From: an uncultured Pseudomonadota bacterium
GTDB lineage: Bacteria > SAR324 > NAC60-12
Direction: 5' to 3'
DNA length: 10,090 nt
Assembly (NCBI GenBank): GCA_913020725.1
Contig: CAJWCD010000124.1
Span: 1 to 10,090 of the forward strand
A model generated the notes under the pieces. The model was not told where the DNA came from. It searched no databases and was given only the letters and a program-made list of their open reading frames with translations. Shown piece after piece: positions 2,318 through 10,090 of this stretch. The position numbers and the translations under genes were made by a program. Within the stretch, counting starts at the first letter, position 1; every line of letters starts with the position of its first letter.

Positions 2318-2671
2318 TCACCGTGCCGCAATCACTCCGATTTCCACCGTGAACTGCGGTGCCGCCAGCTTCGATTCCACGCAGGCTCGGCAGGGCGTGT
2401 TTCCGGGGGACACCCAAGCGTCCCAAATCGCGTTCATCTCATTGAAATCGTTGATATCTGTGAGCCAGATCGTTGCCGAAATCAACTTCGATTTGTCGGT
2501 TCCGGCTTCGGTCAACAGGCCATCAATTTGGGCGAGGATGGCTTCGGTTTGCTTGGTGACGGACGCTCCGGGAGCGGATTGAGCCACCTGTCCGGCGGTG
2601 TAAACGGTGTCTCCGTGTACCACGGCCTGAGTCATGCGGGGGCCAACCTGAATACGTTTGATCTCTGGCAT
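2318..2671 (-). CDS. Rid (RidA/YjgF/UK114) family imine/enamine deaminase, YoaB/Rid2-like
   Basis: Probable start ATG2671 (MPEIKRIQVGPRMTQAVVHGDTVYTAGQV), 117 aa; FNEMNAIWDAWV, TPCRACVE with the catalytic Arg, VEIGVIAA. The ORF-track extension to 2950 is not family-like. Confidence 0.92.
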   Translation of the reverse strand: MPEIKRIQVGPRMTQAVVHGDTVYTAGQVAQSAPGASVTKQTEAILAQIDGLLTEAGTDKSKLISATIWLTDINDFNEMNAIWDAWVSPGNTPCRACVESKLAAPQFTVEIGVIAAR

Positions 2672-2846
2672 GTTCGTTCCTTTATAGAGTGTGCAAAAAA
2701 CTGTGAATCGCAGCCCACCAAACGGTCGGCTGGAAAAACCAAGTTTCAAGCATAGCGGAAACTTTGGCTGGAACCAACCCCAAGTTAAAACTTCAAAAAA
2801 AATTTCTGAAAATACAATTGATAATTTTATCGTAAATAAGTGACGC

Positions 2847-2987
2847 CTTATCGAAGTCTGTCTTGAAGTTACGATAAATGTCACGGACGCTACGGAAGAC
2901 CTTGACTCCGGCGATACTGTGCTCGACGCGCACCCGTAGCTTGGAGACACGCCGATTGGCCTCCTTCTCTTCGGGGTGGATTTCGTC
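2847..2987 (-). mobile_element. Transposase remnant: C-terminal fragment of a DDE transposase (IS5/ISL2-like, DDE_Tnp_4 type)
   Basis: Translates to DEIHPEEKEANRRVSKLRVRVEHSIAGVKVFRSVRDIYRNFKTDFDK, containing the N..(S)..R..VEH.I...K.F catalytic-Glu helix. No N-terminal domain or terminal repeats seen; boundaries approximate. Confidence 0.75.
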
Positions 2988-3105
2988 CTTGCACAGTACC
3001 CTCATTCTTCGGCAGAGCCCTTGACCTCGCGGCCAAACTGGAGATGCTGCGCTTCATGCTCAATGTTCTGGGCAAGACTCCGGAAGTCTTCAAGGACAGC
3101 ACCGA

Positions 3106-6242: not shown

Positions 6243-7178
6243 TTAACTACAAGAGGCTTCAAACTTTCCTCCGGATTTACAGGCAGAGTAGTCGTTGATG
6301 TCACAGAGACCTGCATCAGAGAGGCATTTGATGGCTTGACAGGTGGCTTGCGCGGCGGTGTTCATTAAATCGGAAACTCCTGAGGAGCCAAAGGAGCCAT
6401 AGGTGAAGCCGTCCGCAGCTTGAGAGAGGTAGGTTATGCTGTTGGTGAAGGGGGTACACGCAGATCCACTGCACGAACCATCTGATGCAGTAAAGTCTCC
6501 ACACGCAGCATCAAAGGCTTTGCGCTTCTCGCCCTTTTGCAGGAACCCATCATTTTTTCGGAAGGCTGGGTTGTTGGAAGAGGGAATAGTTGTGTTGCTT
6601 GTGAGTCCAGAGCAGGAAAATTCACTGGTAGCGGCGTTCGAATCGTTATCCACGCAGGAGACGGCCCCGGCGGAGTCGAGTTCGATGGACTCGTCGAGCT
6701 TGAGTGCCAGCAAGTTGGCGATCGCGTAGTTGGTGGCGGCGTCCTTGTCAGTCGAATAGACGGGCTTGAGCTGTGAGATGGCACTGTTCAGATTGGTGAG
6801 TGCCGACTGGACTGAAGTCTTACGGGTGGTCTCGTTATTGATATCGTCGTAGGTCAGCTTGAGAATTTTGAAGAAGGTCGCACCCCCGGTGTCAGTGCCG
6901 ATGTCATCAGCTCCAAGACTTTCGCTATCGGTTCCGGCAGTGGGGGTACTTCCGGAGTTGTCGAGCAGGTTAATGTAGTCGTAGCCCGCCTTGCCCATGT
7001 ACGCGGAAGCCTTGTCCTTGTAGCTGGTGCAGGCGGTGAGGGCGCTGTCGTAGTCGCGGGAGCTGAGGTAGCTCGTGCAGTCTCCGGAATCGGAGTCGGA
7101 AATGAGGTTGTTGCCGCAACTGCCCAGCGTGAGGGTGAGTGCGATGCCCAGAGTGATGAATCGGAGAGGATGCGCCAT
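6243..7178 (-). CDS. Predicted Cys-rich lipoprotein of unknown function
   Basis: Probable start ATG7178 with GAGG upstream. MAHPLRFITLGIALTLTLGS-C21 gives a signal peptide with lipobox; 311 aa, Ser/Thr/Asp/Gly-rich, 12 further Cys; TPR-like segment DYDSAL...ASAYMGKAG. Confidence 0.8.
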   Translation of the reverse strand: MAHPLRFITLGIALTLTLGSCGNNLISDSDSGDCTSYLSSRDYDSALTACTSYKDKASAYMGKAGYDYINLLDNSGSTPTAGTDSESLGADDIGTDTGGATFFKILKLTYDDINNETTRKTSVQSALTNLNSAISQLKPVYSTDKDAATNYAIANLLALKLDESIELDSAGAVSCVDNDSNAATSEFSCSGLTSNTTIPSSNNPAFRKNDGFLQKGEKRKAFDAACGDFTASDGSCSGSACTPFTNSITYLSQAADGFTYGSFGSSGVSDLMNTAAQATCQAIKCLSDAGLCDINDYSACKSGGKFEASCS

Positions 7179-7185
7179 GACGACC

Positions 7186-8361
7186 TCAGAACTCAAGTGT
7201 GAACTCGATGGCCTTGCGTTGCTCGGCAACTCCGGAGGGAGTGCCCGTTTCGACCTTGTAATCAGCATAGCGGATGACCGGCACGAAGGGGAGGCTTAAT
7301 TCCCAGCCGAAGGTGGGGTAGCCCTGATTGTAGCCGGAGCGCAGGATGATCCAGTCGGCAAGAAAGCCCAGTTCCAGCCCAAGGTGCAACCGCTTGTACC
7401 AACAGTTGGTGCCACTTGCGCTCTTGCAGGCGGTGTCGTCCACGCTGTCCTTGGTCAAGTCCCGCAGATCCGCAACGATGAGTGTGCGGGCAATGCCGAT
7501 CTTGGGTTGCATGGACAAGCCAACGTTGATCTCCTGCTTCTCGTCCTGCGGGGTGGTTTCTCCGGAATTGCGAGCAAACTTGAGTCCTCCGGCGTTGAGG
7601 ATGGACATCCCCCAGGACATGCGCAGGAACCGCAGCGAGGACATGCGCTGCTGAAAACCGAGGGTGTAGCCCGTCCCCTTGCGCATTTTGCTGGTGGTGC
7701 AACTGGCATCGGTCACGAAGGTGGAAAAGCCGGAACTGATGCCCGACACACTGCTGGTGCTGGTTTTGTCGCAGCGTTCAATCTGCATGGCGCTGAAGCC
7801 GATGTTGTAGCGCCCCTTGAAAATCGGCATTCCAAAACCGATGGTGGTGAACTGATCGAGACGATCCGCAACGGTGAGGTTAAGATTGACGGCGTCCGAA
7901 ATCCCGATGCGCAGGGTGCGCTCCCCTCCCATGACGGCAGCGAGTGTGAATCCGGAATATTGTTTTCCGAACGGATACACCAAGTGAACGTTGAGGAAGC
8001 TGGTGGGCTTAGAGATGTAGGGGATGCGCAGGTGGATCGTCTTGCCCAGCAGGTTCTGGGCGACGGTCGCGGTGCTACCACTGGTGGAGATTTTTCCGTT
8101 GGCGATGTCAAAAGTGGTTTGTGAGCCCTCGAACACGAAAGGAGTGACGAAGAGGAACTCCTTGGCGTCTCCCAACCCGGCGGGGTTGTAGAAGAGGGCG
8201 AATTCGTCTTGGGAGTAGGCGATGCCCGCATTGCCACGCGCAAGGTACGCCAGCCCCGGGTAGAGCCTGCGGATTTCCCCGGCGCCCACCTCCAGAACCG
8301 TTGCCAGCAGCAGCGTGGGCAGGAGCAGAGTGAAGAGAAAAAGGCGCATTTGTGTGGGCAC
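7186..8361 (-). CDS. Predicted outer-membrane beta-barrel protein (FadL/TraF_2/PorV-like N-terminal motif)
   Basis: AGGAG then GTG8361 (alternative ATG8349); hydrophobic signal peptide; ARGNAGIA...D.FALFYNPAGL motif; alternating strands (RYNIGFSAMQ, YTLGFQ, LHLGLELG, LRSGYNQGY); C-terminal IEFTLEF ending in Phe. Confidence 0.75.
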   Translation of the reverse strand: MPTQMRLFLFTLLLPTLLLATVLEVGAGEIRRLYPGLAYLARGNAGIAYSQDEFALFYNPAGLGDAKEFLFVTPFVFEGSQTTFDIANGKISTSGSTATVAQNLLGKTIHLRIPYISKPTSFLNVHLVYPFGKQYSGFTLAAVMGGERTLRIGISDAVNLNLTVADRLDQFTTIGFGMPIFKGRYNIGFSAMQIERCDKTSTSSVSGISSGFSTFVTDASCTTSKMRKGTGYTLGFQQRMSSLRFLRMSWGMSILNAGGLKFARNSGETTPQDEKQEINVGLSMQPKIGIARTLIVADLRDLTKDSVDDTACKSASGTNCWYKRLHLGLELGFLADWIILRSGYNQGYPTFGWELSLPFVPVIRYADYKVETGTPSGVAEQRKAIEFTLEF

Positions 8362-8486
8362 AGGAATCTCCTGAGTTTCAGAACGGTCAGAAGGAATGCA
8401 CTTGATGTGCAAATTCCGGCTTGCGCCCCCGATCCCATCGACTACGCTTTCCACAGAGCAACTCCGCCCTCACGTCATTTCTGCTT

Positions 8487-9356
8487 ATGTCCATGCCAAA
8501 ACTGTTCGCTGTTGACTCGATGGCCGTCCTCTACCGAGGTTACTTCGCCATGATCCGCAACCCGCTGATCAACTCGAAGGGTCTCAACACCAGTGGTGTC
8601 CGGACAGTCCTCATGCAACTTCTGAAAATTTTGGAGGAAGAACGCCCCGACTACCTCGCGGTCGCCTCGGATTCAAGCGAGCCGACCTTCCGGCACAAGC
8701 GTTTCCCGGAGTACAAGGCAACGCGGGAGAAGATGCCGGACGATCTTGTGGCGCAGCTTCCGTACCTGCCGAGACTGATGGCTGCACTGGGGCTACCCTA
8801 CCTGATCCTGCCCGGATACGAAGCGGATGACATCATCGGCACCCTTTCAAAGACATATAAGGATATCGTCATCGTGAGCGGCGACCGTGACCTGCTCCAG
8901 CTTCTGGATGAAGACAATGCATTATGGCTCACCAAGAAGGGCTATACAGTGTATGACCAATACACGAAGGCCCGGTTTGAAGCGGAGCACGGCATCACAC
9001 CCGACCAGTTCGTCGACGTCAAGGCGCTGATGGGGGATGCCAGTGACGGATACAAGGGCGTCAAGGGCATAGGGGAGAAGACGGCCTTCAAGCTCATCCG
9101 TGAATTCCAGAGGGTGGAGAACCTCCTTACGAACCTCGAACAGCTGACCCCTGCTGTGCGCACGAAGATCGAGGCGGATATCGACTCCCTGAAGATCTCC
9201 CACAGGCTTGCCAGAATCATCACCGATGTACCGATAGACCTGGACTTCGTTGAATCACGCAGCACCCTGAACATTTCAAAACCTGAAATCCAGACCATCC
9301 TGGATGCACATGACCTCAAGATCAGCAGCAAATATGTGCAGACCCTGGATCTATAG
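8487..9356 (+). CDS. 5'-3' exonuclease / flap endonuclease; apparently hybrid (PolA-type N-half, Staphylococcaceae/Bacillales stand-alone ExnP/YpcP-type C-half)
   Basis: Start ATG8487 or ATG8493. Motifs VDS..LYRGYF, FRH..FPEYKATR, GYEADDIIGTL, SGDRD, LMGDASD, GVKGIGEKTA. Ends at ~289 aa with no polymerase domain. Confidence 0.9.
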   Translation: MSMPKLFAVDSMAVLYRGYFAMIRNPLINSKGLNTSGVRTVLMQLLKILEEERPDYLAVASDSSEPTFRHKRFPEYKATREKMPDDLVAQLPYLPRLMAALGLPYLILPGYEADDIIGTLSKTYKDIVIVSGDRDLLQLLDEDNALWLTKKGYTVYDQYTKARFEAEHGITPDQFVDVKALMGDASDGYKGVKGIGEKTAFKLIREFQRVENLLTNLEQLTPAVRTKIEADIDSLKISHRLARIITDVPIDLDFVESRSTLNISKPEIQTILDAHDLKISSKYVQTLDL

Positions 9357-9360
9357 GAGG
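9355..9360 (+). promoter_or_regulatory. Shine-Dalgarno AGGAGG for the RNase HI-family gene, overlapping the exonuclease stop codon
   Basis: ctaTAGGAGGtggggcaGTG; 7 nt to GTG9368. Confidence 0.85.
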
Positions 9361-9367
9361 TGGGGCA

Positions 9368-9763
9368 GTGGCAAGAGCATATATAGACGCCGCCGCATCG
9401 AAGAATCCTGATATGGCCGCCGGCGCGGTTGTCTTCAAGGATGAAGGGACCACCCTCGAGTTCACCCTATTCCTTGGGGAGATGGACAACCATGAAGCGG
9501 AATGGGCTGCATTGGCGTTTGCAGTGGAGAAGGCGCTGGAGCATTCCCTTAACTCGCTGATTGTCCATACGGATTCAAAGGTGATCGCAGACAGTTTCGA
9601 CAGGAATCATGTAAAAAATCCGGTATTCAAAAAATACTTCGAGCAGATTTCACAGCATCTTGATGAATTCGACCTGTTCATCGTCAGCTGGACGCCTAGG
9701 GGCAGTAACCGGCGGGCAGACGAACTGGCGAAGGAAACCTTGTACAGGCACAGAAAAAGCTGA
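9368..9763 (+). CDS. Ribonuclease HI family protein (Bacillales YpdQ / staphylococcal EbsB-like)
   Basis: 131 aa; YIDAA...NP..AAGAV, MDNHEAEWAAL, HTDSKVI, NRRADELAK supply the D-E-D-D acidic residues. Confidence 0.9.
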   Translation: MARAYIDAAASKNPDMAAGAVVFKDEGTTLEFTLFLGEMDNHEAEWAALAFAVEKALEHSLNSLIVHTDSKVIADSFDRNHVKNPVFKKYFEQISQHLDEFDLFIVSWTPRGSNRRADELAKETLYRHRKS

Positions 9764-9785
9764 TCCAGGAGATCAGCCTTTTTTT
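9759..9785 (+). terminator. Intrinsic terminator
   Basis: GCTGATC (9759-9765), loop CAGGA, GATCAGC (9771-9777), then C and T7; an A5 run before the stem makes it possibly bidirectional. Confidence 0.85.
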
Positions 9786-9801
9786 ATACAGGACATTTCG
9801 G

Positions 9802-9819
9802 TATAATTGAAAAAGGAGG
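9802..9819 (+). promoter_or_regulatory. Consensus -10 TATAAT (9802-9807) and Shine-Dalgarno AAAGGAGG (9812-9819) for the zinc-finger gene
   Basis: Both motifs read directly. No good -35 hexamer, so the promoter part is tentative. Confidence 0.55.
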
Positions 9820-9826
9820 TTGAAAA

Positions 9827-10000
9827 GTGAATATCGAAGTATTGGATAAGATCAACGCCCTTGAAGAAAAGTATTGCCAAGGCTGTCTTCTTAAGGAACT
9901 GAACCGTTCTGAAGGCACCCGGACGGCTGCACATAATTTCTGCATCCACGAGTGTTCTGTAGGCATCGCCATACGGTCACACGGGAATAAGCTGCAATAG
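9827..10000 (+). CDS. Small Bacillales-type zinc-finger protein (zf-C2HCIx2C-like), 57 aa
   Basis: Not in the ORF track. GTG9827 to TAG10000 = MNIEVLDKINALEEKYCQGCLLKELNRSEGTRTAAHNFCIHECSVGIAIRSHGNKLQ, pattern YCxxC...HxFCIxxCxVG; perfect SD 7 nt upstream. Confidence 0.88.
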   Translation: MNIEVLDKINALEEKYCQGCLLKELNRSEGTRTAAHNFCIHECSVGIAIRSHGNKLQ

Positions 10001-10010
10001 GAGGATTACA

Positions 10011-10067
10011 ATGGAAAGACAGCAAATCACCAGGAAAGACTTTTCGGTTGGCACAAACCCTGAATGA
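10011..10067 (+). CDS. Possible 18-aa small ORF (MERQQITRKDFSVGTNPE)
   Basis: TAGGAGG overlapping the zinc-finger stop, 6 nt before ATG10011; no recognisable family. Confidence 0.35.
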   Translation: MERQQITRKDFSVGTNPE

Positions 10068-10090
10068 TCCTGTGGTTATATATTCAACTG

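Follow-up and report, generated by a model that had tools for sequence, protein, structure and literature searches.

Contig C124, the whole stretch of DNA analysed here (10,090 bp, referred to below as the window), was in all probability joined in silico from two unrelated genomes. The hybrid exonuclease encoded across the join (positions 8487 to 9356) is correspondingly not a real feature; the probability of the in silico reading was put at about 0.86. An earlier reading made from the sequence alone had proposed the same thing, namely that two unrelated genomes were mis-joined, most likely in a de Bruijn graph. The proposal was supported by a switch of parent within the open reading frame, by the existence of both native parents and by a second contig of the same assembly, C43. 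When the two halves were compared separately, as had been set beforehand, they were assigned to different lineages; the native parents were continuous genes and the hybrid had no full-length homologue.

The genome concerned, that of a marine member of the SAR324 lineage (G000), comprised 204 contigs (3.45 Mb, 56.7% GC) and was scored at 93.3% completeness and 0.59% contamination. From its left end, C124 carried genes for an amidinotransferase/ADI-like protein, a DAO-type oxidoreductase, a RidA-like protein, MeaB and methylmalonyl-CoA mutase. Two further SAR324 genes without a Pfam family were found on the minus strand. One occupied positions 6243 to 7268. The other, an outer-membrane-like gene at 7186 to 8454 (probable start 8349, giving 7189 to 8349), was the nearest complete SAR324 gene to the left of the join. 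Both were syntenic and conserved in the same-genus genome G002 with 84-85% amino acid identity, and the second (84.9% identical to its counterpart) was likewise located upstream of polA there. Atlas look-alike clusters of this second gene bore the names DUF5723 or TraF-family (scores 0.97-0.99), a lead only, and one that would fit the outer-membrane guess of the sequence-only reading. A low-GC patch was observed at positions 2551 to 3000 (0.47-0.50 relative to approximately 0.59 around it), separating the RidA-like gene from meaB. Within this patch was a 70-aa open reading frame on the minus strand (2793 to 3005), which we take to resemble the C-terminal remnant of a transposase.

The open reading frame at 8487 to 9356 encoded 289 amino acids and, as had been claimed for it, read without interruption through positions 8811 to 8846, PGYEADDIIGTL. 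The translated protein carried PF02739 (residues 5-165, 9e-48) and PF01367 (residues 170-256, 6e-28). Its membership of the two-domain 5'-3' exonuclease/FEN family is a property of the composite sequence and not of a real protein.

To the left of the join, the frame comprised the true 5' end of a SAR324 polA gene (codons 1-111, positions 8487 to 8819, plus strand), assigned by identity to the PolA proteins of the same-genus genomes G001 and G002, to the public protein P0121 and to six metagenome contigs. The whole frame was searched in 31 genomes (G000 and 30 relatives) and matched in 30 of them, with the match in the relatives located within a PolA frame of 900-1050 aa. Identity to the PolA proteins of G001 and G002 was 96.2% over residues 1-108 and 39.8% over residues 121-289. 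Across the loci of nine relatives, the N-terminal half showed 75.7-96.2% identity and the C-terminal half 33.5-39.8%; in a sliding comparison with the relatives' PolA, identity dropped right after the motif. At the DNA level, positions 7000 to 8845 were 87% identical to G002, in an alignment that takes in both upstream genes in conserved order and ends at 8845. Named relatives of the N-terminal half were PolA proteins of the SAR324 cluster or of 'Deltaproteobacteria' MAGs. P0121 is a 936-aa PolA from a cluster of 93 members (NCBI, JGI, Tara, ENA and Logan). It was identical to the window frame at every compared residue before the motif (109/109, residues 3-111) and matched C43 at 814 of 818 residues after it. 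The description of the left half as the N-terminus of a full-length PolA was thus borne out by the 96.2% identity to G001 and G002 and by the complete match to P0121. The public proteins used for this comparison may include assemblies of related samples.

Metagenome contigs were scanned with the 40 nt lying just to the left of the join. Six contigs were found, and these too may include assemblies of related samples. To the left of the join, all six were identical to the window at 1029-1039 of 1040 nt. To the right of the join, all six followed C43, with matches ranging from 309/311 to 998/1000 (99.4-99.8%). None of the six followed the window to the right of the join; the corresponding matches ranged from 94/311 to 253/1000, about 25-30% and near chance.

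To the right of the join, the window was assigned to Salinicoccus. Three Salinicoccus genomes (L098-L100) matched positions 8814 to 10017 at 95.8% DNA identity, the three genes, their order and the spacers included. The right part was matched by all 17 genomes of the genus, three of them at 96% DNA identity. In the scan of genome contigs with the right half, the top nine among the 80 matches listed belonged to Salinicoccus, Jeotgalicoccus and Aliicoccus. The best match in that scan was S. cyprini (79%), and genomes of the S. roseus group surfaced only through the search of the genus.

The first of the three genes is the 3' part of a stand-alone 5'-3' exonuclease gene of the Salinicoccus roseus group (8843 to 9356, plus strand), with base 8843 in the Salinicoccus state. 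Residues 121-289 were 95% identical to protein cluster P0001 (48 members, the named ones from Salinicoccus roseus), whose native gene is continuous and has its own Salinicoccus-type N-terminal half. The N-terminal half of the window frame was only about 30% identical to that of the Salinicoccus exonuclease. The second gene is a Salinicoccus RNase H-like gene (RVT_3/RNase_H; 9368 to 9763, plus strand; PF13456, 4e-18) and the third a Salinicoccus zinc-finger gene (zf-C2HCIx2C; 9827 to 10000, plus strand; PF10782, 9e-20). Both lay within the 95.8% DNA match, and their products were 72% and 91% identical, respectively, to those encoded at the same positions in S. cyprini. The sequence-only reading had called the right half and these two genes typical of Staphylococcaceae/Bacillales, and the comparison narrows this placement to the Salinicoccus roseus group, with the same gene order. 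Since Salinicoccus belongs to the Staphylococcaceae (Bacillota) and SAR324 is a separate deep lineage, the label 'cross-phylum' given to the junction is correct.

The position of the crossover was determined by aligning the six native SAR324 contigs and the three Salinicoccus genomes with the window. Salinicoccus DNA differed from the window at positions 8816 and 8819, where the window carries the SAR324 base, and was 100% identical to it from 8820 to at least 8900. The six SAR324 contigs matched the window up to 8842 and differed from it from 8843. With the SAR324 state kept through 8842 and Salinicoccus identity beginning at 8820, the crossover therefore lies within the 23 nt from 8820 to 8842, which code for EADDIIGT. 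A shared motif of approximately 30 bp had been proposed at the join; a shared stretch was indeed present there, and its length was corrected to 23 nt. Three 21-mers and a single 23-mer are contained in this stretch, 23 being the largest k that it can accommodate. The frame remains open across the join simply through the homology of the two genes, in which the shared stretch has the same codon register. A further discontinuity was found close to the right end of the contig. The last 73 nt (10018 to 10090) departed from Salinicoccus, the match to four Salinicoccus genomes stopping at 10017, and these four genomes share another conserved continuation after the ATG at 10012. With a second break at this end of the contig, the paths here seem to have been poorly resolved.

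Differences in composition across the join had also been reported from the sequence alone, and every one of these cues was recovered in the counts. GC content was 0.577-0.59 to the left of the join, and to the right was 0.529 (8847 to 9356), 0.519 (9357 to 9770) and 0.428 (9771 to 10090). ATA and AGG codons were counted 2 and 6 times, respectively, in the 2731 codons on the left and 4 and 5 times in the 360 codons on the right. AGGAGG was absent from the left and present three times on the right (9355, 9814 and 9999), each 7 nt ahead of a start codon (9368, 9827 and 10012), and TCCGGA occurred 26 times on the left and not at all on the right. The assembly itself was divided into segments of 1244 nt for comparison. 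At least three AGGAGG on one strand were found in 102 of 2875 segments (3.5%), TCCGGA was absent from 265 of 2875 (9.2%), and 54 of 2671 (2.0%) were as far from the tetranucleotide mean of the genome as the right part. The cues of GC, tetranucleotides, AGGAGG and TCCGGA are real and are not decisive alone. The switch of parentage is decided by homology, as judged from the alignments described above.

Outlying composition was also seen at other contig ends of G000. Terminal 1244-nt segments made up 25 of the 58 top-2% tetranucleotide outliers, relative to 14% of all segments (odds ratio 4.8, Fisher p 6e-8), and many of these terminal outliers were low in GC (0.25-0.40). They could be islands at which the assembly broke, or further chimeric ends.

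The remainder of the SAR324 polA gene was located on contig C43 (locus L016) of the same assembly. G000 contained one DNA_pol_A domain (PF00476, 9e-143), in a 938-aa frame of C43 whose start is 233 nt away from the end of the contig. Before the motif, this protein was about 42% identical to native SAR324 PolA (46/109). After the motif, it showed close to 90% or more identity to G001 in most positions of a sliding comparison. Its first 108 residues were 96% identical to a PolA from JGI, with the next matches to Verrucomicrobiales (94%) and Verrucomicrobiaceae (93%). When placed on G002, the C43 alignment began at C43 position 566 and overlapped the end of the window alignment (window position 8845) by 26 nt. 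By these comparisons C43 is a second chimeric contig, foreign from position 1 to approximately 590 and of SAR324 origin after the EADDIIGTL motif. One SAR324 gene was thus broken at a single conserved motif and both of its stumps were extended into the genes of other organisms. In both cases the foreign piece was located at a contig end, taking up the final 1.25 kb of C124 and the opening 0.57 kb of C43. Exact runs common to C124 and C43 in the motif were 11 nt at most; the pattern is therefore that of a tangle of at least three alleles and not of a simple swap.

The hybrid 289-aa protein was recorded from a single 10,090-bp contig among about 15 billion proteins, and its sole cluster mate, an N-terminal fragment of 99 aa, stops short of the join. 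Neither the public protein clusters nor the six metagenome contigs contained a continuous homologue spanning the full length of the hybrid, and the hybrid join was present in neither of the two same-genus genomes (G001 and G002). Exact matches in the protein collection were found neither for a 311-aa version of the frame with a TTG start nor for the C43 PolA taken from its ATG, and these two results are uninformative for either reading. Sequencing runs were compared by the share of window words that they contained. Two runs of one study gave shares of 0.74 and 0.61, sixteen gave 0.46-0.48 and one gave 0.20. The expected shares were 0.482 for the left part only and 0.512 for the right part only, in a measure that does not distinguish which words each run has.

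The following course of events would account for these results. The sample probably contained three organisms, the binned SAR324, a member of the Salinicoccus roseus group and a marine member of the Verrucomicrobiales, whose polA or 5'-3' exonuclease genes are nearly identical in DNA where they encode the catalytic motif EADDIIGT. Within a de Bruijn graph built with a short k, these genes would meet at shared nodes, and the assembler would leave the tangle by a wrong exit twice. C124 would result from passage from the 5' end of the SAR324 polA into the 3' part of the Salinicoccus exonuclease gene and the two genes downstream (crossover within 8820 to 8842). C43 would result from passage from the 5' end of the Verrucomicrobiales polA into the remainder of the SAR324 polA (crossover near C43 positions 566 to 590). 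Joined in frame between homologous genes, the first product would then be called as a plausible 289-aa 'hybrid flap endonuclease'. Sequence comparison shows both parentages, the 23 nt common to the two genes, how C124 and C43 tile the native gene, and that each parent has a continuous native form. What we infer is that the assembler, at k of about 21-23, produced the join, rather than a reaction in the tube. An overlap of 23 nt explains the join only at k of 23 or less, or by way of an overlap or scaffolding step.

Wrong-path assembly was preferred because a single assembly contains two differing wrong joins at one motif, because both foreign pieces are located at contig ends, because a 23-nt identity is bridgeable only by small k and because a further discontinuity is present at 10017 on the same end. 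Much of this bears on the improbable alternative that the molecule was formed in vitro, by template switching at the 23-nt stretch during PCR or whole-genome amplification, and was then faithfully assembled. An identity of 23 nt would be sufficient for template switching, and the two runs of one study with word shares of 0.74 and 0.61 appear to contain words from both halves. Any one such molecule is rare, however, and the native path, being abundant, should prevail over it. The two differing joins on C124 and C43 follow the pattern of a graph tangle, and template switching at 8820 to 8842 is further countered by the break at 10017.

A real and very recent recombinant, in which SAR324 took up Salinicoccus DNA through the 23-nt microhomology and so acquired a hybrid exonuclease and a truncated polA, is highly improbable. 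The open frame, the good scores of both Pfam domains and the homologous register of the join would agree with it, but the rest of that polA gene was found elsewhere in the assembly, its product identical to the native protein at 814 of 818 residues. The suggestion, made from the sequence alone, of a real microhomology recombinant that had lost the Pol I polymerase domain was contradicted by this polymerase part on C43. The join was also absent from all six contigs of this SAR324 species, and in a collection of about 15 billion proteins the hybrid was recorded from a single contig. The transferred block keeps its 96% identity to Salinicoccus, its GC content and its AGGAGG sequences, with no sign of residence in a genome of 57% GC; it measures just 1.2 kb and lies at the end of the contig, with a second break following at 10017. 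As a softer point, 16 of the 18 sequencing runs with a word share of at least 0.46 lay at about 0.48, the value expected from the left part only (0.482). In the most far-reaching version of this reading, a SAR324 cell of the source sample would have carried a Salinicoccus insertion in polA only days old, caught by the assembly as a rare variant beside the wild type; we regard this version too as very hard to credit.

As an artefact, the junction has no biological meaning and is a database error to correct. A genome scored at 93.3% complete and 0.59% contaminated carries at least two cross-phylum chimeric contigs, and the 289-aa hybrid protein is already present in public protein collections (NCBI and ENA). 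Read alone, C124 would suggest a SAR324 organism without the PolA polymerase domain, or the gain of an operon from the Bacillota. For correction, C124 should be cut within 8820 to 8842 and C43 near 566 to 590, with removal of the foreign ends. As a worked example, the case also illustrates cleanly how believable fusion proteins arise when a join falls in frame at a catalytic motif.

Three known systems were compared with the window. The first part of the frame resembles DNA polymerase I of SAR324 (P0121), with which residues 3-111 are identical, and the genes upstream of the frame are syntenic with G002; it differs from that protein by being without the 3'-5' exonuclease-like and polymerase domains, both of which are located on C43. 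The second part resembles the stand-alone 5'-3' exonuclease, or flap endonuclease, of the Bacillota (P0001) in the 95% identity of residues 121-289, and differs from it in its N-terminal 111 residues, which are foreign to the P0001 protein and about 30% identical to it. As in Salinicoccus genomes, an RNase H-like gene and then a zf-C2HCIx2C gene are found downstream, in the same order. Taken as a whole, C124 corresponds to an inter-genome translocation misassembly of short-read metagenomes and MAGs, with two genomes in one contig joined at a shared conserved sequence. Joins at conserved sequence common to distinct organisms are a class of error described in the metaMIC paper and in the DeepMM preprint. 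According to the latter (2026), on CAMI data 69.4% of the near-complete MAGs from MEGAHIT and 20.5% of those from metaSPAdes contain interspecies chimeric contigs. The C124 join is like such misassemblies also in escaping marker-based quality control (93.3%/0.59%). It differs from them in nothing essential, but is unusually neat in being in frame, within a catalytic motif and cross-phylum, and in that its reciprocal half, C43, is likewise chimeric, with a third phylum.
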